Positions 3,725 to 27,340 of a DNA stretch of 37,931 bases are shown here, piece by piece. The notes under the pieces were generated by a model. It was not told the origin of the DNA and ran no database searches. It saw only the letters and a list, made by a program, of their open reading frames with translations. A program made the position numbers and the translations under genes. This DNA comes from a virus (Duplodnaviria > Heunggongvirae > Uroviricota > Caudoviricetes), in IMG/VR virus record IMGVR_UViG_2711768047_000011. One strand, written 5' to 3'. Numbering within the stretch: the stretch's first letter is position 1; the number at the start of each line of letters is the position of its first letter.

Positions 3725-3951
3725 TGGCTGATGCAATGGATCTCGTACAGCAGCGCGTTGAAGAAGAACGCCAGCGTCATATCCATGCTGCCCGTGCCAA
3801 AACGCCGGGCGTGTCCCGCGTGCTTTGCATTGAGTGTGAAGCGCCAATTCCGCCAGCACGCCGCCGTGCCATTCCGGGTGTGCAGCTTTGCATTACCTGT
3901 CAGGAAATCGCAGAGCTGAAAGGCAAACATTACAACGGAGGTGATGTATGA
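3724..3951 (+). CDS. TraR/DksA-family C4 zinc-finger protein
   Basis: CIECEAPIP...CITCQ four-cysteine motif with basic linker, typical of phage TraR/DksA-like proteins. Confidence 0.65.
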   Translation: MADAMDLVQQRVEEERQRHIHAARAKTPGVSRVLCIECEAPIPPARRRAIPGVQLCITCQEIAELKGKHYNGGDV

Positions 3952-4805
3952 GCACCATCCTGAAATGGGCGGGAAATAAAACTGCCATAATGTCAGAACT
4001 GAAAAAACATCTTCCTGCTGGCCCGCGACTGGTTGAACCTTTCGCGGGTTCCTGTGCTGTGATGATGGAGACGGATTATCCCAGCTATCTGGTTGCGGAT
4101 ATTAATCCTGATTTAATCAACCTCTATAAAAAGGTTGCCGCTGATTGTGAATCATTTATATCTCGCGCCAGAGTTTTATTTAAGGAAGCAAACAGGGAGG
4201 TGGCTTATTACAACATAAGGCAGGAGTTTAATTACTCAACTGAAATTACTGATTTCATGAAAGCGGTATATTTCCTGTATCTCAATCGTCACGGTTACCG
4301 TGGTTTATGTCGCTATAACAAGAGCGGGCATTTCAACATTCCCTACGGTAATTATAAAAATCCGTATTTCCCTGAAAAAGAAATTCGCGCATTTGCAGAA
4401 AAAGCCCAGCGGGCAACGTTTATCTGCGCCAGCTTTGATGAAACGCTGGCGATGTTGAAGGCGGGGGATGTGGTGTATTGCGATCCGCCGTATGACGGTA
4501 CGTTTTCCAGCTATCACACTGATGGTTTCACTGAAGATGACCAGTATCACCTGGCATCCGTTCTTGAACATCGGTCATCAGAAGGACATCCGGTCATTGT
4601 TTCTAACAGTGACACATCCCTGATCCGTTCGCTGTATCGCAATTTTACTCACCACTATATCAAGGTAAAACGCAGCATCGGTGTGGCAGCTGGCGAGGGT
4701 AAATCAGCAACAGAAATCATTGCTGTTTCCGGGCCGCGCTGCTGGGTGGGATTTGATTATTCGCGTGGCGTGGATAGTTCTGCCGTGTACGGAGTACGTG
4801 CATGA
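3948..4805 (+). CDS. dam: DNA adenine methyltransferase (Dam family, N6-A)
   Basis: N-terminal LKWAGNK SAM-binding motif and catalytic DPPY (CDPPYDG); GGAGGTGA RBS. Confidence 0.85.
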
Positions 4806-7216
4806 GCCATGCCGATATGAACAACTGCTGCGGCTTTAACGAGGCTGCCGCAGCGTTCTCATGGAACAGCCCGAAAAAGGCCATTAACCCTTATCTGGAC
4901 CCGGCGGAAGTTGCGCCGGTTTCTGCGCTTTCAAACCTGATCACTCTGTACGCTGCCGATAACGAGCAGGAACAGTTGCGCCGCGAGGCACTGAGTGATC
5001 AGGTCTGGGAGCGTTATTTTTTTAATGAATCACGTGATCCTGTCCAGCACGAAATGGAGCAGGATAAGCTCATTAGCCGGGCAAAGCTGGCGCATGAGCA
5101 GCAGCGTTTTAATCCGGATATGGTCATTCTGGCGGACGTCAACGCCCAGCCTTCCCATATCAGCAAGCCGCTGATGCAACGTATTGAATACTTCAGCAGC
5201 CTGGGCAGGCCAAAGGCTTATTCCCGCTATTTACGTGAGACGATTAAGCCATGTCTGGAACGACTGGAGCATGTACGCGACAGCCAGCTATCTGCATCTT
5301 TTCGTTTTATGGCAAGCCATGTAGGGCTGGACGGCCTGCTGATTCTGCCTGAAATGAGTCAGGATCAGGTGAAACGCCTGTCTACCCTTGTCGCTGCGCA
5401 TATGAGCATGTGCCTTGATGCAGCTTGTGGTGATTTGTATGCCACCGATGACGTTAAGCCAGAAGAAATCCGCAAGACATGGGAAAAGGTGGCAGCGGAA
5501 ACCCTGCGTCTGGATGTTATCCCGCCTGCGTTTGAGCAACTCCGTCGGAAAAGAAACCGCCGTAAACCCGTGCCCTATGAACTCATTCCGGGTTCGCTGG
5601 CGCGTATGTTGTGCGCCGACTGGTGGTACCGGAAATTATGGAAAATGCGTTGCGAATGGCGGGAAGAGCAGTTGCGTGCTGTCTGCCTGGTCAGCAAAAA
5701 AGCATCTCCCTATGTCAGCTATGAAGCCGTGATGCATAAACGTGAGCAGCGCCGCAAGTCACTGGAGTTTTTCCGTTCTCATGAACTGGTGAACGAAGAG
5801 GGCGACACGCTGGATATGGAAGACGTGGTAAACGCCAGCAGCAGCAACCCGGCGCACCGCCGCAATGAGATGATGGCCTGTGTTAAAGGTCTGGAGCTTA
5901 TCGCGGAAATGCGCGGTGACTGCGCCGTTTTCTACACCATTACCTGTCCGTCACGTTTCCATTCCACGCTCAATAACGGCAGACCAAACCCAACTTGGAC
6001 AAATGCGACGGTAAGACAAAGCAGCGATTATCTGGTCGGCATGTTTGCTGCATTTCGTAAGGCGATGCACAAAGCCGGATTACGCTGGTATGGCGTGCGG
6101 GTGGCTGAGCCGCATCATGACGGTACAGTTCACTGGCACCTGTTGTGTTTTATGCGCAAAAAAGACCGCCGCGCCATCACTGCATTGTTGCGTAAGTTTG
6201 CCATCCGTGAAGACCGCGAGGAACTGGGTAATAACACTGGTCCACGCTTTAAATCTGAGCTGATAAACCCGCGCAAAGGAACACCGACAAGCTACATCGC
6301 GAAATACATTAGTAAGAACATTGACGGGCGTGGTCTGGCTGGCGAGATCAGCAAGGAAACGGGTAAATCCCTGCGTGATAACGCTGAATACGTTAATGCC
6401 TGGGCGTCTCTGCATCGTGTTCAGCAATTCCGCTTCTTTGGCATTCCGGGGCGTCAGGCTTACCGTGAACTGCGATTGCTGGCTGGTCAGGCGGCAAGGC
6501 AACAGGGGGACAAAAAAGCAGGTGCGCCGGTACTGGATAACCCGCGCCTTGATGCCATCCTGGCTGCTGCTGATGCCGGTTGTTTTGCCTCCTACATCAT
6601 GAAGCAGGGCGGCGTACTGGTTCCCCGCAAATATCACCTCATCAGAACCGCTTATGAAATCAACGAAGAGCCGACCGCCTATGGCGATCACGGTATTCGT
6701 ATTTATGGCATCTGGTCACCCATTGCAGAGGGTAAGATCTGCACTCATGCAGTGAAGTGGAAAATGGTTCGTAAAGCCGTTGACGTTCAGGAGGCGGCAG
6801 CCGACCAGGGCGCTTGCGCCCCTTGGACTCGTGGCAATAACTGTCCCCTTGCTGAAAATTTGTACCAACAAGGGAAAGACAAATCAGCTGATGGGGATAC
6901 CAGAACGGATATCATCCGTATGGATGACAAGGAGTTGCACGATTATCTGCACAGTATGAACAAAAAAGAGCGCCGAGAACTGGCTGCAAGGTTACGCCTG
7001 GTGAAACCGAAACGGCGTAGAGACTACAAACAGCGAATTACAGACCATCAACGACAGCAGCTCGTCTATGAACTGAAGTCCAGAGGATTTGATGGCAGCG
7101 AGAAAGAGGTCGATTTACTCCTTCGCGGCGGCAGCATTCCGTCAGGAGCAGGCCTGCGAATCTTCTATCGGAACCAGCGTTTGCAGGAAGATGATAAGTG
7201 GCGGAACCTGTATTAA
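4802..7216 (+). CDS. rolling-circle replication initiation endonuclease (P2 gpA-like)
   Basis: 804 aa; HUH-type motif (TVHWHLLCF) and tandem-Tyr region ([12 protein letters not shown]); start overlaps dam stop. Confidence 0.85.
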
Positions 7217-7308
7217 TTACGCGGGTTAACAATTCGTGCTCTTAATAATACCAGGCATATCAGGCTGATGAACGTAAAAAAACGTTTTACATCAGTAAGA
7301 TTATTATA

Positions 7309-7328
7309 TACTGTAAATATAAACAGTG
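7309..7328 (+). promoter_or_regulatory. LexA (SOS) box TACTGTAAATATAAACAGTG
   Basis: CTGT-N8-ACAG with AT-rich spacer, near-consensus; 40 bp upstream of the GGAGG RBS of the ORF at 7370. Confidence 0.6.
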
Positions 7329-7369
7329 GTTATACATACAGTATTGCTTGTGGTGTCATAGGAGGAAAA

Positions 7370-7558
7370 ATGCAGGACTATTTTTTGGAGTCTTTGAAGC
7401 TCCAACGCATTGATTTTTTTCTTAAGCTTGTAGCGGCTAGTGAGTGTAGTGATGAAGAGAAGGGGCTGGCTTTGCAGTGGGTTTCTGAACTAACAGATGA
7501 ACTCATGGCAAAAATCAGAACCCACGAATACAACCGCTCAATGGATGTCATCAGTTGA
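7370..7558 (+). CDS. small hypothetical protein (62 aa), first gene of putative SOS operon
   Basis: Strong GGAGG RBS then ATG 7370; the longer reading from 7268 would span the LexA box and is unlikely. Confidence 0.4.
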   Translation: MQDYFLESLKLQRIDFFLKLVAASECSDEEKGLALQWVSELTDELMAKIRTHEYNRSMDVIS

Positions 7559-7568
7559 GGTGACTTTT

Positions 7569-7802
7569 ATGCGCATTGAAATAATGATCGATAAAGAGCA
7601 GAAGATTAGCCAGTCTATCCTGGACGCCCTTGAATCCGAGCTTTACCGCAATCTGCGCCCCCTGTATCCAAAAACGGTAATTCGTATCCGCAAAGGTAGC
7701 TCTAACGGTGTGGAACTGACCGGACTGCAACTGGACGAAGAAAGGAAGCAAGTGATGAAAATTATGCAGAAGGTGTGGGAAGACGATAGCTGGCTGCATT
7801 AA
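7569..7802 (+). CDS. DinI-family (damage-inducible protein I-like) protein
   Basis: MRIEIMIDKEQ...LDALESELYRNL...KIMQKVWEDDSWL matches the DinI fold signature; own RBS GAGGTGA. Confidence 0.8.
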   Translation: MRIEIMIDKEQKISQSILDALESELYRNLRPLYPKTVIRIRKGSSNGVELTGLQLDEERKQVMKIMQKVWEDDSWLH

Positions 7803-7810
7803 GAAACGTT

Positions 7811-7840
7811 GCCCCCAGTAGGGTTCATTCTGATGGGGGC
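7811..7840 (+). terminator. hairpin after dinI-like gene
   Basis: GCCCCCA...TGGGGGC inverted repeat directly after the stop; no strong T-run. Confidence 0.3.
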
Positions 7841-7976
7841 TAGTTTGAGCAACGAGTGAAACGAGGCGTTAGGTGGGAGGCCATTTTGATAAGTTATCAC
7901 CCACTTTATACCAATAACAGAACTGCGTAATAACTATTTACCTCGGGGGAAGATGTGAGCCATACAAATTTCAGTA

Positions 7977-9035
7977 TTAATTTTCAATTCCCTCCATTTT
8001 ACAATGAGTTTTTTCCCAGAACTGTAATACAACAGGACTAGCCCACTCTGGCATCAGTGCGTTATTTAAAAAACTGAAAACATCATGAGACGCATCAGCA
8101 TTTTTTCTAAGGAATTTCCAGCCTTTTCTAGTATTTATCTCAACAATACCTAACCCACCATCATCAAACATATGCATCTTGAATTCAGGATTGTTTACAC
8201 CTAGAGATTTTATTTCTTTTATGTATGGACTATCTTCATCCATAAATATTTTCTCTATGTGCTTAGCACAATGATATATTTTATTTCGATAAGTTGATAC
8301 GCTCACAGCGGTACGCGCTGTTGTTATTCCCATTCCTAATGGGGCATATGCTTTTCCATCCATCACTACGGGCAGATTTATTCCATTTTTTCTTAAGTTT
8401 GCAATATCTGAATCTGTAGTTGGATGAATACAAGCTAAGCCTGAAATACCTTTCATTTCAAATATTTCTGCTGCTTCTGGCCAGTTGCGTATGAATGTTT
8501 CTACCAAATCTCTTTGAGAAAAAAGATTTGGTTCTATGTTTTTATCATGATGTTTTATATCAATAAAAAGCACAGCGTTTGAGTACACCTTCAGGAATAA
8601 TACCCACTCAGCACGATCTGAGTATTTTTTACTTGAACTTACTGGATTTAATGGCAGATGGAGGTGATGAATCCCCCAATCAGCCCATAGGTTATCCGTT
8701 CTTTTCGTCGCCTTTTTACCGCTTGTGTCATTGAATAATGTTAATGTTTTACTCTGATAAGGATTTACATCACCACCAGTAGTAAACAACATCTCGATTC
8801 TCTGCAATCCAACCCTTGCGCCATCGTGAATATTTTCAGGAAATCGATCTGATTTTAAAATTATTCGTTTTTGTGGAGCAATGTAGCGTAAAAGAAAATC
8901 ACACCACCTCAGTAGAGGATCGTGAAGATTTGAGTGCCCGGATTCATCATATAATAACCCAAATGCTTGAATTCCCTTCTCTGAAATTTCGTCAATATCT
9001 TTGATTAGATCAATATTTTTTCGTGCGTCCAACAT
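7977..9035 (-). CDS. hypothetical protein (352 aa), hotspot cargo of unknown function
   Basis: AT-rich ORF on opposite strand to flanking phage genes; GGAG RBS before ATG; no family recognised by eye. Confidence 0.6.
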   Translation of the reverse strand: MLDARKNIDLIKDIDEISEKGIQAFGLLYDESGHSNLHDPLLRWCDFLLRYIAPQKRIILKSDRFPENIHDGARVGLQRIEMLFTTGGDVNPYQSKTLTLFNDTSGKKATKRTDNLWADWGIHHLHLPLNPVSSSKKYSDRAEWVLFLKVYSNAVLFIDIKHHDKNIEPNLFSQRDLVETFIRNWPEAAEIFEMKGISGLACIHPTTDSDIANLRKNGINLPVVMDGKAYAPLGMGITTARTAVSVSTYRNKIYHCAKHIEKIFMDEDSPYIKEIKSLGVNNPEFKMHMFDDGGLGIVEINTRKGWKFLRKNADASHDVFSFLNNALMPEWASPVVLQFWEKTHCKMEGIEN

Positions 9036-9301
9036 ACTAACTCCGTTTAAATATAATTTTTTAGTATTTCAGTTAATTAATATCTATACGCCGTTATAGC
9101 TGAATTTTCCGGTGATTTCAGGGCACATTAACCAATTTAGATAATACTATAGTAATGGTTGGGCTGATTTTTCAAGAACAAAAGTAATTTTCAAGCTTTG
9201 TAACATGTTGATTTTCCACTTTTCGCTCAAGCGGGCTTTCATCTTTGCAAGCCCATATGTTCGTTTTTCAAGCGATTATTCAGATACGTTAACTTCCCAT
9301 G

Positions 9302-9410
9302 GCAGTGCATGACTATGCTGCATGAAATCGCATGATCGATCGAGGATCGTCTATGCTTAGACCAGCCAGAAATGGCGGGCTTTTGCTCATGTCATGCAGC
9401 TGCATGAAAA
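9302..9410. repeat. cos-flanking repeat cluster
   Basis: Direct repeat GCTGCATGAAA at 9317..9327 and 9399..9409; inverted pair GCAGTGCATGAC (9302..9313) / GTCATGCAGCTGC (9391..9403). Confidence 0.4.
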
Positions 9411-9429
9411 CCACTGCATAAAGTGGGCA

Positions 9430-9448
9430 GGCGTGGCGGGGATACGAG
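9430..9448. other. cos cohesive-end site candidate (GGCGTGGCGGGGATACGAG)
   Basis: First 13 nt identical to the 19-nt cohesive end I recall for 186 (GGCGTGGCGGGGAAAGCAT; P2 GGCGAGGCGGGGAAAGCAC); lies where cos sits in P2-like genomes. Confidence 0.5.
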
Positions 9449-9568
9449 CGCGCGCTAGAAACGTTTACTGATATTCTTGTAGTACATTGCATTTTTCTTT
9501 TTTTATGTCATATCATTAGCCATTTGAATAGGACATTATTATCAATTTGTTGTCTCTGAGGATAAGTT

Positions 9569-11350
9569 ATGAATTTTGATGCAACACCACTAAATATAAA
9601 AAACATTCTATCTGTAAAACAAAGATATGTTATTCCTCGTAATCAACGTGAGTTTAGTTGGGAAAAGCTTCAGCTTGAAGAGTTATGGCAAGATATTGTC
9701 AGAAACATAAGGTTGAATGAAGATGGACAGAACTTGGAGTGTTCAGAATATTTTATAGGGACTATTGTTCTTTCTGGAGCAGATAGTGATGATGTATTAG
9801 AAGTGGTTGATGGACAACAACGATTTTCAGTTATTACTATATTGCTTTCATTAATATCGCGTAAATTGCGTTCCTTAGGGCAAGATTCATTAGCGGATGA
9901 TATATTTAAAACATATATCGTTACTGTGAGTCCTACATTTAGCAGAAGCCAATTAGCTTCAAATGGTGAGACATTTATTGAAAAATTAGCAAAAAATAGC
10001 GATAGAACATATTTTAAGTTAAAATATCAAGATCGCGAAGAGCATCAAGTTGATGAATCTTGTGAAGAGGATGTACGTATAAGTTATGCAGGAATTTTTC
10101 TTTCTAGAAAACTAGGGAGGAAATCACTCTGTTCTGCATTGTTGCGAGATGGTGCAAAACATTATAATAACCAAGATTATATATTTTGTTTGACTGCTGT
10201 ATATAGAATGATTACCAATTATTTGAAGTTGGTAAAAATATCTGTAGGTAAGGAGGATGATGCTTATGATATTTTTGAAGTGTTGAATGCTCGAGGGATA
10301 AACTTAAGTTCAATTGATTTGATAAAGAATAAAGTATTCCAAACTTGCACTCAAACATATCCGGTAGATATTGCAAAAACAAAATGGGATTATATCGTTA
10401 CTCAAATTGAGTCTAGGGATAGTAATAGCACTATTGCTGATTATATTAGAACGTGGTGGCTTTCTAAGTATAATTATATTGGAGAAGATCAACTTTATCG
10501 TGCTTTTAAACGTGAGATTCAAGATGAGAATACTTTATTGTCATCAGCATCATTTCTGAACGAATTATATGATGATGTTGAATTATACTGTAAAATAATA
10601 GCGCCAAATACAGATGACTGGCCTCAACCTGATCAGCGTGAAATTTACAACTCGTTAAAAGCATTCGAGATTTTTAATGTGAGTATTCCTCGACCATTTG
10701 TACTCTCATTACTTAGAAAACGTAAAGAGAAACCGAGAGCCCTTACACAATCAATGCTGATAGAATGTTTGAAGTCCTTAGAGTCATTTCACTTTAAGTT
10801 TAATGCAGTATGTCGTCTAAGACCATCTGGAATCGATGCAAAATATTCTGTATTAGCAGTAAGAATGAATAAGGCATTAAATAAAAGAGATGTTGAGGGT
10901 GTTATTAATGACGCGTTAGATTATTTTACACAGAAAGGGCCTTCAGAAAATATATTCAAACAAGCATTTTCAAAGAATATTGTTTATACAAATAAAAAAT
11001 CTGGGCAAAGGAAGTTGATTGTTTATATTTTTGACAAATTGGAACGTATCAGACGAGGGACGCGAGAGTTAAAAATGGATATAGTTTCTTTGGAGCACAT
11101 ATCATCTCAAAGCAAAACTAACGAGTCAGTCGTGGGTATGATTGGTAATTTACTACCACTCTGTTTTTCACTTAATGAAGATTGCAAAAATTATGAGTTG
11201 CACAAAAAAATAGAATCTTATAAAAAATCTGATTTAAAATTAGTTACAGAGTTTGTTAGTGAGTCAGAAGCAAGAGAACATAAATGGGATGATTCATTAA
11301 TAAAAGAAAGAACAGATAGCTTGGCGTTAGAAACGTTTGCTAAAATATAA
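9569..11350 (+). CDS. DUF262/DUF1524 fusion protein (GmrSD-family type IV restriction-like nuclease)
   Basis: N-terminal ParB-like DUF262 motifs (IPRNQREFSW, DGQQR at 9809..9823, FEVLNARGINLSSIDLIKN); C-terminal His-Me finger-like DUF1524 region (LEHISSQS...IGNLLPL...N). AT-rich, GAGGA RBS. Confidence 0.75.
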   Translation: MNFDATPLNIKNILSVKQRYVIPRNQREFSWEKLQLEELWQDIVRNIRLNEDGQNLECSEYFIGTIVLSGADSDDVLEVVDGQQRFSVITILLSLISRKLRSLGQDSLADDIFKTYIVTVSPTFSRSQLASNGETFIEKLAKNSDRTYFKLKYQDREEHQVDESCEEDVRISYAGIFLSRKLGRKSLCSALLRDGAKHYNNQDYIFCLTAVYRMITNYLKLVKISVGKEDDAYDIFEVLNARGINLSSIDLIKNKVFQTCTQTYPVDIAKTKWDYIVTQIESRDSNSTIADYIRTWWLSKYNYIGEDQLYRAFKREIQDENTLLSSASFLNELYDDVELYCKIIAPNTDDWPQPDQREIYNSLKAFEIFNVSIPRPFVLSLLRKRKEKPRALTQSMLIECLKSLESFHFKFNAVCRLRPSGIDAKYSVLAVRMNKALNKRDVEGVINDALDYFTQKGPSENIFKQAFSKNIVYTNKKSGQRKLIVYIFDKLERIRRGTRELKMDIVSLEHISSQSKTNESVVGMIGNLLPLCFSLNEDCKNYELHKKIESYKKSDLKLVTEFVSESEAREHKWDDSLIKERTDSLALETFAKI

Positions 11351-11357
11351 GTTCAGT

Positions 11358-11376
11358 GGCAGGTATAGTACCTGCC
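11358..11376. terminator. bidirectional hairpin between convergent genes
   Basis: Perfect 8-bp stem GGCAGGTA/TACCTGCC with 3-nt loop, followed by an A/T-rich stretch. Confidence 0.5.
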
Positions 11377-11386
11377 ATTATTCAAT

Positions 11387-12421
11387 TTACATACACTCCA
11401 CAGAGTATTCACTGAATGAGATGATGTTTTTTTTAGCCCATTCATTAAGTTGCAGAATATGTTTTTGAATTGGTAGTAACTCATTCATAACAAATACTTT
11501 CGCGGCCTTTTCCACATCCCCAAACCCCCCAACATTATTAGGCATAATCCCCATCATTTGCGGTGGCACACGATGCGCCGCCATCATGTCATCCCGGCTC
11601 ACGTTCTTGATGTTTAGAAACTCATCCTTCGCCGCCACTTCTGACAACGGGATAATCTGAAGTCCGTCCTTTTTCCCGTTAGGCGAGTACATAAACAGGT
11701 TGCGGAAGTTACCTGGTCCTTTGGCGCTTTTCATCGCATTGCGGAGGTTGTTCACGTCCTCCTGGTTCTGCGCGGCATCGGTCATGTACATGATGAAGCC
11801 TGCATGGCTGCCGTTGATGTAATACTTACGGCGGAACAGCGTGGCGGACTCGTTGAGCAGGGCTGACGGAATGGCAGAAAGATAACCGGGCAGGCCGTAG
11901 ATCTCCTGGTTGATGTCCGGTTCCATCAGATGAAAAATGCTGCCTTTCGTGAACTGATACGGCTGCGTAGTCATGCCGTATTGCACAAACCAGTAGGTAT
12001 CCAGGTCTAATCCGCGTCGGGTGTATTTTGCCAGAGCAGGCTCAAGGGCGATAACTTCACCGAACCGGTTTGTGCGTTTCTCCAGGTAGGCGTTACCAAA
12101 TACCAGATAGTCCTGCACAAAACGCGAAAAAGCCTGCTGGCTGAGCAGCGGATGAGGGATATAGGTACTGGTCAGAATGTTGCACTTTACTGCAATCGGG
12201 GAACTGTGATGCACGGCAGCGCGGAAGGTGCGCGCCAGTCCGTCAAAGCTGACGGGCGGCTCATACCAACGGTCCATCTGTACGCATTCCACATAGTCCA
12301 GCAGTTCTCGGCGGTCCAGAACAGGAACGGGATCGCCGAAGCTGAATGCTTCGGCTGTAGTCTGGCTTTTAAGCTGGATCTGTTTCGTCGCCGCAGCGCG
12401 GTTTTTCTTACTCTTTCCCAT
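11387..12421 (-). CDS. portal protein (P2 gpQ-like)
   Basis: 344 aa from ATG 12419..12421 (same size as P2 gpQ); start overlaps terminase stop (ATGA). Confidence 0.9.
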   Translation of the reverse strand: MGKSKKNRAAATKQIQLKSQTTAEAFSFGDPVPVLDRRELLDYVECVQMDRWYEPPVSFDGLARTFRAAVHHSSPIAVKCNILTSTYIPHPLLSQQAFSRFVQDYLVFGNAYLEKRTNRFGEVIALEPALAKYTRRGLDLDTYWFVQYGMTTQPYQFTKGSIFHLMEPDINQEIYGLPGYLSAIPSALLNESATLFRRKYYINGSHAGFIMYMTDAAQNQEDVNNLRNAMKSAKGPGNFRNLFMYSPNGKKDGLQIIPLSEVAAKDEFLNIKNVSRDDMMAAHRVPPQMMGIMPNNVGGFGDVEKAAKVFVMNELLPIQKHILQLNEWAKKNIISFSEYSVECM

Positions 12422-14187
12422 CAAAAAATCTCCACAATATTGCTGGTATTGGCGGATTCGCCCTGCAGTGGTTCGTTAAACAGTGCGTGCATTGTTGCCC
12501 AGGCCAGATCGGCGTGGCTGGCTTCTTCGCTGCGGCTGGCTTCATAGGTTGGGCGGTTGCCACTGGCGGTGGTTGCGCGACGGATTGCCATGAATGACTG
12601 CGCAATGTCGGTGTGCCCGGCGTCAAACTCCAGACGGCGGTGGCTGATAATGTCGTAGGCCTTGAGTACCAGGGCGTTTTTAACGTTGGGGTTGTAGACA
12701 AACTCCCGGACGGCAGGAAAGAACGCTTTCACGTTCTCGTAAACCCCGTGACCAACGCCGGTTGAGTCGATACCGATATAAGTCACGTTGTACTGTTCGG
12801 TAAGTTTTTTGATGGCGTCAGCCTGGGCGCGGAAGTCCATCCCGCGCCACTGGTGACGCTCAAGAATGCGGAACTTACCACCCGGCACGGCTGGCGGTGC
12901 CACCACCACGCATCCAGCGCTGTCGCCGTTTTGCGTACCTTTTGCCGGGTCATAACCGATCCACACTTCGCGCCAGCCAAACGGGCGCAGCGCCAGTGCA
13001 TGAAAGTCGGTCCAGACTTCCCAACTGTCCACCATGCACGCCTGCAGCTCGCTGAGCGGGAACACGGACGCGAGATCGTCCACGAACTCGCACATCAGCA
13101 GGTTCTGGTATTCGTCCGGGCTGTACTCCATGCGTAGCTGGTCGAGGTCGAACAGGTTACAGCCGCCGCGCACCGCATCTTCCACGGTGACTATCTGGCG
13201 GTATTGCCCGTCTGCGCACAGCAGGCCGGGGGCCAGATTGCTGTGGGACAGGTCGATATCCACCTTGTCAGCTTTGTTGCGCCCACGGTTGAACAGCGCA
13301 CCGGACCAGAACGGATAAGCACTGTGGGTCAGGCTGGATGGTGTGGAAAAATAGGTCTGCCGCCATTTCTTGTGAATAGCCATACCGGAAGCCACTTTGC
13401 GCAGCTCCTGAAATTTCGGTATCCAGAAATATTCATCCAGATACAGGTTGCCGTGGTAACTCTGGGCCGTGCGGGCATTGGTGCCGAGGAAGTAAAGCGT
13501 GGCCCCGTTGGGAAGCACCATCGGATCGCCTTTCAGCTCCACCTCCACTTCTTTGGCGAAGTCGATGATGTACTGCTTAAAGACGTGAGCCTGTGCCTTA
13601 CTGGCAGAAAGGAAAATCTGGTTACGTCCGGTAAGCAGGGCGTCAATCAGGGCTTCACGGGCAAAGTAAAAGGTCGCGCCGATCTGGCGTGACTTCAGCA
13701 GGTTGCGGATGCGGTTGGTTTTTCCGGCTTCCCACCAGTGGCGCTGGTAGTTGAACATGGAGGAATGGAAGATTTCTTCCAGCTTCTCAATCTGTTCATC
13801 GGTGAAGACATTCTTTTCCGGCTGACGGCGCGGGCCTTTGTTGCGGTTGGCGACGTTAGGATTTAAGTCGGCTTCGTTGCCGCCATTGTTAAACTTGCCG
13901 ATCCGCGCGTGGCGCTCCGACTGGCGCGCCAGCAGGTCAATCTCTTTGAAATCTTTCCCTTCTTTGTGCTCCTTCATAATTAGCTGGCAGTAGCGTGCGG
14001 CGGTGGTGAGCTGCATCTGATCCAGCGGCCCATAGTCACCCCACTTGTCGCGTTTTTTCCAGCTGTGAACGGTTGCAACTTTCTCGCCCAGCATTTCAGC
14101 AATGCGGGCTACGCGGTATCCCTGAAAGTACAGCAGCATGGCCTGCCGACGGGGATCGAGATCTGCGGGTGTCAGTGTGGTGTTCAT
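12421..14187 (-). CDS. terminase large (ATPase) subunit (P2 gpP-like)
   Basis: 588 aa; position and size as P2 gpP; divergent from O. Confidence 0.9.
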   Translation of the reverse strand: MNTTLTPADLDPRRQAMLLYFQGYRVARIAEMLGEKVATVHSWKKRDKWGDYGPLDQMQLTTAARYCQLIMKEHKEGKDFKEIDLLARQSERHARIGKFNNGGNEADLNPNVANRNKGPRRQPEKNVFTDEQIEKLEEIFHSSMFNYQRHWWEAGKTNRIRNLLKSRQIGATFYFAREALIDALLTGRNQIFLSASKAQAHVFKQYIIDFAKEVEVELKGDPMVLPNGATLYFLGTNARTAQSYHGNLYLDEYFWIPKFQELRKVASGMAIHKKWRQTYFSTPSSLTHSAYPFWSGALFNRGRNKADKVDIDLSHSNLAPGLLCADGQYRQIVTVEDAVRGGCNLFDLDQLRMEYSPDEYQNLLMCEFVDDLASVFPLSELQACMVDSWEVWTDFHALALRPFGWREVWIGYDPAKGTQNGDSAGCVVVAPPAVPGGKFRILERHQWRGMDFRAQADAIKKLTEQYNVTYIGIDSTGVGHGVYENVKAFFPAVREFVYNPNVKNALVLKAYDIISHRRLEFDAGHTDIAQSFMAIRRATTASGNRPTYEASRSEEASHADLAWATMHALFNEPLQGESANTSNIVEIF

Positions 14188-20252: not shown

Positions 20253-21053
20253 ATGTCTGAAAAGTTAATTTTTTTATCCCATATAACAGAAGAAAAAGAA
20301 TTAGCGAAAATAATCAAAGATGCAATTGAAGACGAGTTTTCTGGATTCGTTGAAGTGTTTGTATCGTCAGATGGGAATACAATTAAAGCCGGTCAAAATT
20401 TCTTAAATGTTATTGAAAATGGGTTAGTAAATTGTATTGCTGCTATTTATCTGATAAGCCCAGAATCTGTCCAGAGAAGCTGGATTAGTTTTGAGTTAGG
20501 GGCTGTATGGGTTAGAAATGCTATCAGCCGGCAAAACGGCGGGCCAGAAATCCCTGCTATTCCTTTTTGCCACTCGGATATGACGTTTAGAGACTTGCCC
20601 CAACCTATCTGTAATCTAAATGGTATTGAAGCAAACCGATCTCATTCCTTGGAGTTTGCATTTAAGTCGATTCAGACCGCTGTTGGAGGAAAAGGACGAT
20701 TGAGAACTGATTTTGATGTTCTTGCCGAGAAAGTTAACATTTTTGAGAGAGATTATACAGTCTTCAAAAGTATAGGCGAAATTCTCGGTTTAATTGGTGT
20801 AGATAGCCAGCGTCGCGCACAATTAGTTCAGCTTGTTAATAGTTCAGCAGAGAATGAAGTTATAATTAAAACTGATACTAGGCAGGATTCAGCAGATATA
20901 ATATTTAAATTAGTTGATACTAAGTTAAGTCATTTCGCTAAATATAAAGTAACATCTTCTGGTTTAGGTATGGGACTTCAAGGCGCTTCCCCTTTCTGTG
21001 AATTTGAATTGAGAATGGATCGGAAAATACTCAGTGATTACTTGGCTCGATAG
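20253..21053 (+). CDS. TIR-like domain protein (266 aa), cargo between S and V
   Basis: N-terminal IFLSH...ELAKIIKDAIE...VEVFVSSDG.I.AGQNF...I...I..IYLISPESVQRSWISFELG follows the TIR beta-alpha pattern; very AT-rich; strong RBS TAGGAGGG. Confidence 0.6.
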   Translation: MSEKLIFLSHITEEKELAKIIKDAIEDEFSGFVEVFVSSDGNTIKAGQNFLNVIENGLVNCIAAIYLISPESVQRSWISFELGAVWVRNAISRQNGGPEIPAIPFCHSDMTFRDLPQPICNLNGIEANRSHSLEFAFKSIQTAVGGKGRLRTDFDVLAEKVNIFERDYTVFKSIGEILGLIGVDSQRRAQLVQLVNSSAENEVIIKTDTRQDSADIIFKLVDTKLSHFAKYKVTSSGLGMGLQGASPFCEFELRMDRKILSDYLAR

Positions 21054-25925: not shown

Positions 25926-26798
25926 TTAACTAGCGTGTAATAAGTTGAACAGGTTTTTAGTTACTTCGTTTTTAGTACTAAAAAACATATCTTTAAGGTC
26001 AGGTAATGCAAAGAGAGCATTTGGGGTATTCGGTACAACAATAGGAGGTTCATATCCGTTGTCATACATTTTCTTTAAAGCGGCTACTATTTTTTTCTGA
26101 TTTCGATTGAATTCATTCATGTCAATAAAAATTTCTCCAGATAGTGTCCCGTCATCTTCACGTAGTATCGCTGGTTTGACACGACATATCTGATCCATTT
26201 CTCCAGTAGAAAAACCGGCAATCGCTGCATTAAATAACAAAGATGAAGTAGCCCATTTTTCATATAGTTTTTTGATAGCCATGCTTCTGATTTTTTTATC
26301 GTTGATATATCCAATGCCACTGGCCAAAACTTCGGTTAATGGATTTTCCCCGCGAGTTACTCCAGACCAATAGTTGTGCATCCAGGGCGCATTTTGCTCA
26401 AGTGGAGAGCCGAGATAATCAGTGATCCACTCTGAATCCACCTCTGTAAAGTTCAAACCATGAAAATCAATTTCTGCAATAGTATTTTTATAGTTTTGAT
26501 TTAAACTCCAACGGTCGATTGCTATTTCAGCCATTTCTTTTGTTTTGAATAGGTATATTCCGGTTAGGCGGGAAACCTTATCTCTGAAATTGTCTGAGCG
26601 AACCTTTTCAAGAGCTAACTCATTTTGTAATTTTTCATTGTGATTATCTGATAAGTATTTCCTTACTAGATTGTAGAACCAAATAGATACTCCAAACTCA
26701 CTTTTATAGCAAATTGATTCAATTCTTCCTATTGCAACCTCCCAGGCAACAATTGGATTATTTAAATTTAAGTAAGCATATAGTTTTCTCTGTTCCAT
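25926..26798 (-). CDS. hypothetical protein (290 aa), AT-rich cargo in the tail-fibre switch locus
   Basis: ATG at 26796..26798 with AAGGA RBS (MEQRKLYAYL...); very AT-rich; no family recognised. Confidence 0.55.
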   Translation of the reverse strand: MEQRKLYAYLNLNNPIVAWEVAIGRIESICYKSEFGVSIWFYNLVRKYLSDNHNEKLQNELALEKVRSDNFRDKVSRLTGIYLFKTKEMAEIAIDRWSLNQNYKNTIAEIDFHGLNFTEVDSEWITDYLGSPLEQNAPWMHNYWSGVTRGENPLTEVLASGIGYINDKKIRSMAIKKLYEKWATSSLLFNAAIAGFSTGEMDQICRVKPAILREDDGTLSGEIFIDMNEFNRNQKKIVAALKKMYDNGYEPPIVVPNTPNALFALPDLKDMFFSTKNEVTKNLFNLLHAS

Positions 26799-26935
26799 TT
26801 TTATTTTCCTTATAGATGCTATGAAGGTTATTATTACATAAATGTTCGATAAATATTTTAAAGTTTTAACTATGTTTCGGTGGCAATAAATATACATTAC
26901 AAGTGAAATTTATCAAGATAACAAAAGGATAGCTA

Positions 26936-27340
26936 ATGCTAATAGGCTATGTACTCGTGTCAACAAATGACCAGAACACCGAGCTGTAACTCTTTATGCT
27001 GACAGAAGAGTTGCGCCAGCATGGTGTGAATTTTAGAAGCCTGACTGACAGTATTGATACCAGTACCCCAATGGGCCGTTTCTTTTTTCATGTCACGGGT
27101 GCCCTGGCTGAAATGGAACGCGAACTGATAGTTGAACGTACCAGGGCGGGGCTTGCTGCAGCTCGCGCCAAAGGCAGAGTAGGTGGACGCCGTCCTAAGT
27201 TGACCACCGAACAGTGGGCACAGATTGGGCGTTTACTCGAGGCCGGAGAATCAAGACAGCGTATTGCACTGATTTTTGATGTGGGTGTTTCCACAATTTA
27301 TAGAAAATTTCCGCCAAATAAGAGCAATGAATCCCCCTGA
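26936..27340 (+). pseudogene. Gin/Hin/Pin-family serine DNA invertase, internally deleted
   Basis: N-terminus MLIGYVLVSTNDQNTEL then in-frame stop at 26987, resuming as LTEELRQHGVNFRSLTDSIDTSTPMGRFFFHV...GGRRPKLT (C-terminal HTH). About 58 codons of the catalytic domain absent and the conserved Arg in YVRVST is Leu. Confidence 0.7.

Follow-up and report, generated by a model that had tools for sequence, protein, structure and literature searches.

What does the gene at the tin/old position of a P2-like prophage encode, and how might its product act? The question is raised by IMG/VR record IMGVR_UViG_2711768047_000011, a stretch of 37,931 nucleotides (nt) that is referred to here, at its full length, as the window. 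The window is a P2-like prophage with integrase, CI, CII, a Dam-like methylase, gene A, portal, terminase, capsid and tail genes. Its minus strand carries, at 7977..9035, an ATG-started open reading frame (ORF) for 352 amino acids. A preliminary description, made from the sequence alone, had proposed this ORF as a single-gene defence or abortive-infection (Abi) factor carried as cargo in the P2 hotspot. That proposal was right, because exactly this behaviour has already been demonstrated for PD-T4-7, the published system to which the gene belongs by the PADLOC match described below (PMC9519451). It is probable that this known Abi defence against T4, sitting as exchangeable cargo in the tin/old slot, acts as a self-restrained RelE-like ribonuclease (RNase).

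Identity of the gene

The PADLOC model PDLC04066, named PD-T4-7, is a full-length match to the 352-residue protein (E 2.8e-144), with residues 1-342 aligned to positions 1-335 of a 337-position profile. A second PADLOC model for PD-T4-7, PDLC04065, also matches it (E 1.6e-39). The preliminary description had been unable to assign the protein to a known family; this defence hidden Markov model (HMM) now does so. The accompanying remark that no domain is recognisable holds for Pfam, NCBIfam and PHROGs, none of which has a family for the protein, and fails for PADLOC. When the protein was compared with solved structures by sequence-profile search, the best match was no better than E 0.4.

PD-T4-7 was discovered in a functional selection by Vassallo et al. 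(2022, Nat Microbiol; PMC9519451), as clone T4-43 from E. coli UMB0103, with RRN43039.1 as the protein. The published ORF, 337619..338677, is 1059 nt long (PMC9519451), the same length as the ORF in the window. It was cloned with two flanks of at most 424 and 167 base pairs (bp), was validated against T4 in MG1655 as a single gene under its native promoter, and was grouped with the Abi systems (PMC9519451). Judged by the family HMM and by ORF length, the gene in the window is PD-T4-7, the same system. The P2 hotspot location has been described by Vassallo et al. (2022; PMC9519451) and by Rousset et al. (2022); the four systems that occupy the hotspot are named in a figure of PMC9519451 only, not in its text. 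Since 2022, therefore, the gene has been known together with its role in defence, its behaviour as an Abi system and its place in the hotspot, and standard defence-finder tools (PADLOC, and DefenseFinder as PD-T4-7) recognise it.

The gene and its apparent expression signals are as follows:

7977..9035, minus strand: PD-T4-7 coding sequence (352 amino acids plus stop), protein WP_023568849.1, labelled 'hypothetical protein' in RefSeq
9041-9044, minus strand: ribosome-binding site GGAG, 5 nt before the ATG, read from the sequence
9175..9146, minus strand: TTGAAA-18-TATAGT, a sigma-70-like candidate promoter some 110 nt before the ATG, by consensus match only (10/12)

The coordinates, strand, length and AT-richness given in the preliminary description were all confirmed, as was a ribosome-binding site of the gene's own. 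Guanine-plus-cytosine (GC) content is 0.36 in the ORF and 0.275 at its third codon positions (GC3), against 0.528 and 0.565 in the adjacent gene A and a window average of 0.50. The promoter-like site falls within the region cloned by Vassallo et al., whichever way the clone is oriented.

Is the ORF a real gene? A word-indexed search found 132 homologous clusters, and an exhaustive search by profile gave 3,235 representatives of clusters (E up to 0.001), of which 544 remain at E up to 1e-30. The ORF is therefore a real gene rather than a chance reading frame, and it belongs to a family of more than 3,000 cluster representatives for which there is no Pfam model. The length of 352 residues is specific to the allele in the window, the relatives from the indexed search having 341-344. 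Within E. coli, 48 copies were found in 5,426 complete genomes, all of them at least 99.9% identical, whereas 1,260 genomes have matches to the slot's flanks; this presence/absence check bears out the view that the gene is cargo and not core.

Predicted fold and conserved residues

The full-length structure was predicted with a local distance difference test score (pLDDT) of 86.4 and a template modelling score (pTM) of 0.86. Two halves can be distinguished:

8541..8918, minus strand: predicted RelE/ParE-fold (BECR) toxin domain, residues about 40-165, basic (isoelectric point, pI, 9.6), the better-conserved half
7980..8540, minus strand: C-terminal half, residues 166-352 (187 amino acids), acidic (pI 6.1), less conserved

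Structure prediction with fold comparison, which the preliminary description had suggested, was thus informative for one half only. The N-terminal half has a RelE-type alpha/beta fold in the predicted structure; for the C-terminal half (166-352) neither a structural relative nor a known fold was found from the prediction. In the model a strand (58-61) and a helix (71-86) are followed by a long conserved loop and three further strands (122-126, 144-150 and 154-162), and it is this order of elements that places the RelE-like domain at about residues 40-165. The fold matches, with their scores, include the following:

HigB1, 7.7
HigB, 6.9
RelE, 6.6 and 6.5
HigB2, 5.9
YoeB, 5.8
YafQ, 5.4
ParE, 5.2
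Cami1, the CRISPR-associated RelE-type RNase (PDB 8phb), 5.1

A sequence-level signal, weaker than that from the fold, points in the same direction. PD-T4-7 was labelled "RelE toxin-like" by its discoverers from a weak HHpred match to YafO_toxin (probability 51%, residues 118-164), an even weaker match being to tail sheath or TssC (PMC9519451). The published YafO_toxin coordinates fit the motif WADWGIHHLHL, which occupies residues 117-127 of the protein in the window. An hhalign comparison of the family with the single K-12 YafO gave E 0.11, and one with a profile of 16 YafO sequences gave E 0.017 over 72 columns, in which H124 and H126 are paired with the invariant H60 and H62 of YafO. There was no hmmscan match to the YafO family PF13957. 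A relationship with YafO is suggestive only.

Which residues might form an active site? Conservation was read from alignments with members down to 23% identity, in which the N-terminal half is conserved more than the C-terminal half (0.60 versus 0.45). R57, W120, H124, H163, R215, G218 and G236 are invariant, and G87, D114, D119, H126, D159, W185, P186, G234 and A240 are at least 90% conserved. R215, G218 and G236 belong to the C-terminal half, with its glycine-rich loop GxGxTTA. R57, H124, H126, D159 and H163 are conserved on the predicted sheet of the model, and H124, H126, D159 and H163 are candidate catalytic residues. The codons of these four candidates lie within 8547..8666 on the minus strand:

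8664-8666, minus strand: H124
8658-8660, minus strand: H126
8559-8561, minus strand: D159
8547-8549, minus strand: H163

A subfamily of about 290 amino acids lacks the NDTSGKK..KR insertion (residues about 102-112) and the last two helices, and keeps R57, H124, H126, D159, H163, R215 and the GxGxTTA loop. The second PADLOC model, PDLC04065, probably describes this subfamily.

Proposed mechanism and rival readings

How could such a protein protect against T4? In the mechanism proposed here, the N-terminal half (about 40-165) would be a RelE/YafO-like endoribonuclease domain with an active site built from H124, H126, D159, H163 and R57. The C-terminal half (166-352), packed onto this domain in one compact protein, would keep the toxin inactive; there is no separate antitoxin gene. 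A cue from T4 infection would relieve the restraint, and the released enzyme would cut RNA, most likely mRNA on the ribosome, so that translation stops and infected cells die or cease to grow before they can yield new phage. It is the combination of a RelE-like fold, the published Abi phenotype and the absence of an antitoxin gene that points to a self-restrained RelE/YafO-like endoribonuclease. The residues invariant down to 23% identity are conserved as in an enzyme, and the basic, better-conserved core beside an acidic C-terminal half recalls a toxin and its antitoxin. RNase activity, ribosome dependence, C-terminal self-inhibition and the nature of the trigger are all inferred.

Several observations weigh against this mechanism. 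The RelE fold was assigned from a predicted structure and not from a solved one, and a scan of 48 family members at E up to 10 gave no match to a Pfam model of the RelE/ParE type. The comparison with the YafO profile is marginal at best (E 0.017, hhalign probability 2.6%). The invariant R215, G218 and G236 mean that the C-terminal half may serve catalysis or substrate binding and not just inhibit. The link to the type protein RRN43039.1 is indirect, made through the HMM, the shared 1059-nt length and the identity of at least 99.9% among the 48 E. coli copies. Lastly, a literature search for the mechanism or biochemistry of PD-T4-7 turned up no mechanistic study, but just the discovery paper, some surveys and one review-type preprint in which RNase activity is assumed. 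Pfam families were the starting point of a 2025 survey of multidomain RelE/ParE toxins, in which PD-T4-7 does not appear.

Does the gene act alone? The module that holds PD-T4-7 contains no small partner ORF, no Rfam match and no tandem repeat array. A 59-aa ORF at 9313-9492 was considered as a partner and rejected: it overlaps the cos element, and its DNA is found without PD-T4-7 as well. Enterobacterales, Aeromonas, Burkholderiales, Halomonas and Chromobacterium have homologues with 30-70% identity, and none of the 48 family members scanned has a Pfam domain. Their surroundings are diverse. The Providencia homologue lies in an integrase/AlpA/WYL island beside a PvuRts1I-like enzyme, that of Pantoea in an integrative conjugative element, that of Halomonas in an integrase island and that of Paraburkholderia downstream of glmS, while those of Variovorax, Serratia and Aeromonas lie in ordinary chromosomal neighbourhoods. 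No neighbour is common to the ten genomic contexts examined. Thus, neither the module nor a conserved neighbour supplies an adjacent cognate antitoxin gene of the kind found in a type II toxin-antitoxin operon. The lack of a common neighbour, together with the lack of a hidden ORF or RNA in the module, supports a self-contained single-protein system; on this genomic evidence PD-T4-7 is a stand-alone gene with no obligatory partner.

Two of these contexts have a further feature. A DUF2971 protein is encoded directly upstream on the same strand in two beta-proteobacteria, Paraburkholderia (L009 4998-5927, gap 74 bp) and Chromobacterium (L027 5175-5963, gap 38 bp), and both match the PADLOC defence candidate PDC-S31 (E 1.7e-50 and 1.4e-28, respectively). 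The pair could form an operon or could merely be company in a defence island.

Four other readings have been considered. The protein could have the RelE/ParE fold and act by Abi without being a ribosome-dependent mRNA interferase; its substrate would then be tRNA, rRNA or free mRNA, or its active site would be a composite one shared with the C-terminal half. That half does hold the invariant R215, G218 and G236 of the GxGxTTA loop, modelling gives a higher pTM for the whole protein (0.86) than for the C-terminal half by itself (0.62), and even in YafO and MqsR it is uncertain whether the ribosome is required (Gerdes 2025). However, there is no positive evidence for another substrate, and most of the characterised RelE-fold RNases among the top fold matches (HigB, RelE, YoeB and YafQ) work on the ribosome. 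This reading is unlikely but plausible. Less plausible again is a ParE-like, non-nucleolytic toxin that would use the same fold to poison DNA gyrase or another host or phage protein. ParE is among the fold matches; the invariant His, Asp and Arg on the sheet are typical of the RNase branch, and the sole sequence-level signal is to YafO, which is an RNase.

The remaining two readings are given hardly any weight. The preliminary description had noted, as weak hints, a possible PD-(D/E)xK arrangement (D...IDIK) and an HH dyad; with the dyad as an auxiliary element, the protein would be a DNA nuclease. D159 is indeed at least 90% conserved, but K161 varies (K, R, Q, L, P or E) and so does H123, so that the PD-(D/E)xK idea fails and the histidines that matter are H124 and H126. 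The dyad therefore survives in altered form, with H124 invariant, H126 nearly so and H123 dropping out. Moreover, the D...IDIK motif sits on strand 4 of the RelE-like sheet, and no PD-(D/E)xK protein is found among the significant fold matches. Equally improbable is a two-gene system in which PD-T4-7 would have as its partner the GmrSD-type gene beyond cos, transcribed divergently from it:

9569..11350, plus strand: GmrSD-type gene, 593 amino acids, GC 0.34, between cos and Q, not part of PD-T4-7

The two occur together in 47 of the 48 E. coli genomes that have PD-T4-7, and the Providencia homologue adjoins a different type IV modification-dependent enzyme, the PvuRts1I-like one. Yet the E. 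coli copies are all at least 99% identical, so that the linkage can be simple common descent, and the eight other contexts have no modification-dependent neighbour. Each gene is also found without the other: the identical GmrSD protein occurs with an HNH gene in place of PD-T4-7 in strain L3452210II, and the identical PD-T4-7 protein occurs beside a DUF4062 gene in place of the GmrSD-type gene in assembly L015. In addition, cos separates the two genes, and the published clone, which still protects, has a flank of at most 424 bp and does not reach the GmrSD start, 533 bp away. The co-occurrence in E. coli reflects the common descent of one recent prophage lineage and does not speak for a two-gene system, a reading that is effectively refuted.

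The GmrSD-type gene is itself a type IV restriction-like gene, with a GmrSD_N/DUF262 domain (PF03235, 2e-32) and a GmrSD_C domain (DUF1524/HNH; PF07510, 1e-11). It matches PADLOC HEC-06 (7e-75) and phrog_21165 (8e-235), and it was found in 50 E. coli genomes. The PvuRts1I-like/SRA neighbour in Providencia (L004 4796-5671) recognises modified cytosine, and the class of the E. coli GmrSD neighbour targets modified T-even DNA. The presence of modification-targeting neighbours in two of the ten contexts may be coincidence, or may reflect complementary anti-T-even layers. In strain G4/9 (CP060073.1) a prophage remnant has gpD and ogr directly after the GmrSD-type gene; the portal-to-tail genes have been deleted, and both defence genes are intact.

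The slot around cos and known systems

Where exactly does the cargo begin and end? Between gene A and the portal gene Q the window has the following features, in addition to PD-T4-7 and the GmrSD-type gene:

4802..7216: replication gene A (Phage_GPA, E 2e-127)
7370-7558: ORF of 62 amino acids (phrog_698)
7569-7802: DinI-like gene, convergent with the 352-residue gene
7811..7840: GC-rich hairpin GCCCCCA...TGGGGGC, seen by eye where the DinI-like gene and PD-T4-7 converge
7813..9306: PD-T4-7 cargo module, comprising the gene and the non-coding DNA that belongs to it on either side, GC 0.365
9304..9456: conserved non-coding 152-bp element containing cos, the right boundary of the tin/old-type sub-slot
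11387..12424: portal gene Q, on the same strand as the 352-residue gene, as is P

The hairpin is a weak candidate for a bidirectional terminator; a terminator scan did not report it, its loop being longer than 8 nt. Two statements of the preliminary description need correction here. Four ORFs, not a single AT-rich one, lie between A and Q, and they include the GmrSD-type gene beyond cos. The 352-residue gene is on the opposite strand relative to gene A, as had been stated for the phage backbone as a whole, but on the same strand as Q and P.

The limits of the module follow from a comparison with strain L3452210II. The stretches 7001-7812 and 9307-11600 are common to both (98-99% identity), and 7813-9306 is replaced there by an HNH-endonuclease module. 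Across four genera, 81 P2-like phages have the element at 9304-9456 with 84-90% identity. Its part at 9398-9456 aligns to the P2 cosR/cosL junction, that is, the joined cohesive ends (44 of 59 positions identical, E 5e-7), and this alignment to the physical ends of P2 places cos at 9430-9448, where the 19-nt cohesive-end sequence reads GGCGTGGCGGGGATACGAG. A 19-mer taken as the P2/186 cos had no match in the window within 3 mismatches. A hairpin just before the cohesive-end sequence differs from that of P2 by compensatory changes. The cos mapping and the comparison with P2 confirm that the gene lies at the tin/old position between A and cos, as first described.

The cos element divides the A-to-Q hotspot in two, and each sub-slot exchanges its cargo independently of the other. 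PD-T4-7 occupies the one on the A side, and the GmrSD-type gene occupies the second, between cos and Q. In L015 the DUF4062 gene stands in place of the GmrSD-type gene beside the identical PD-T4-7 protein. The alternative cargo genes in related prophages encode a 344-aa DUF4062 protein (L015 3477-4511) and a 239-aa HNH endonuclease (L3452210II; L002 3460-4179), neither of which matches a PADLOC model. SopEPhi has the same two-sided layout around cos.

Three other genes of the window deserve mention. A Dam-like, D12-class N6-adenine DNA methyltransferase (3948-4805, plus strand; PF02086, 1e-76) lies directly upstream of gene A and is classed by PADLOC as an orphan methyltransferase. A 266-aa TIR-domain protein is encoded at 20253-21053 on the plus strand (TIR_2, 1.5e-7; PADLOC PDC-S66, 8.9e-7, with weak matches to spbK and ThsB). 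It belongs to a third AT-rich island (GC 0.37-0.40), amid the genes for morphogenesis and tail, and is probable further defence cargo of the same prophage. An AT-rich ORF of 323 amino acids (25926-26897, minus strand; GC about 0.32-0.38) lies just after the tail-fibre and tail-fibre-assembly genes, at the Z/fun position, which is hotspot 2 of P2 in Vassallo et al. (PMC9519451). Unlike PD-T4-7, this ORF is truly unassigned, with neither a Pfam nor a PADLOC match; it is flanked by a truncated resolvase/invertase fragment (26996-27340, plus strand).

What does this locus add to existing knowledge? As discovery it adds little. The analysis contributes fold-level support for a RelE relationship, a sharper list of candidate catalytic residues, the finding of a fold-orphan C-terminal half in a family of thousands, and the hotspot split by cos. 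The remaining value lies in the mechanism, for which the predicted fold, the invariant residues and the orphan half suggest concrete mutants and constructs.

The gene shows no detectable difference from published PD-T4-7: the ORF has the same length, the species is the same, each is a single gene with a promoter of its own (a promoter-like site in the window), and PMC9519451 describes a P2-type prophage hotspot too. With P2 Tin and Old it shares the slot on the A side of cos, the orientation and an anti-phage role in lysogenic conversion. In contrast, there is no sequence similarity to either (BLASTP E 7.3 and 21), and the 352-residue protein has no Walker A motif, as the preliminary description had noted. 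An OLD-family nuclease was rejected on the same grounds: no Walker A, no Pfam ATPase or Toprim match, and E 21 against P2 Old by BLASTP.

Compared with the RelE/ParE (BECR) toxins HigB1, HigB, RelE, YoeB, YafQ and YafO, PD-T4-7 likewise has a basic domain and conserved histidines on the sheet, and its His-x-His motif aligns with that of YafO. It differs in being three to four times larger, in having a long conserved loop insertion at 87-121 and in being fused to a C-terminal half of 187 amino acids, with neither an adjacent antitoxin gene nor a Pfam RelE/ParE match. Cami1 is a CARF-RelE ribonuclease of type III CRISPR systems, and its CARF domain turns it on upon binding cyclic oligoadenylate. 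The logic proposed for PD-T4-7 resembles that of its sensor-coupled RelE domain, whereas PD-T4-7 lacks both a CARF domain and associated genes for signalling. In CapRel(SJ46), a single polypeptide carries an N-terminal toxin that is restrained by its own C-terminal domain and freed upon phage infection, resulting in Abi through translation arrest. The logic proposed for PD-T4-7 is the same, and by this analogy its C-terminal half may act as the sensor; the toxin folds are unrelated, CapRel being a tRNA pyrophosphokinase and PD-T4-7 RelE-like. It is conceivable, if somewhat doubtful, that PD-T4-7 founds a large unrecognised branch of the RelE/ParE toxins, in which the RNase is fused to an orphan domain of about 190 amino acids serving both as built-in antitoxin and as phage sensor. 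If so, the PD-T4-7 branch would be the RelE-type counterpart of CapRel.

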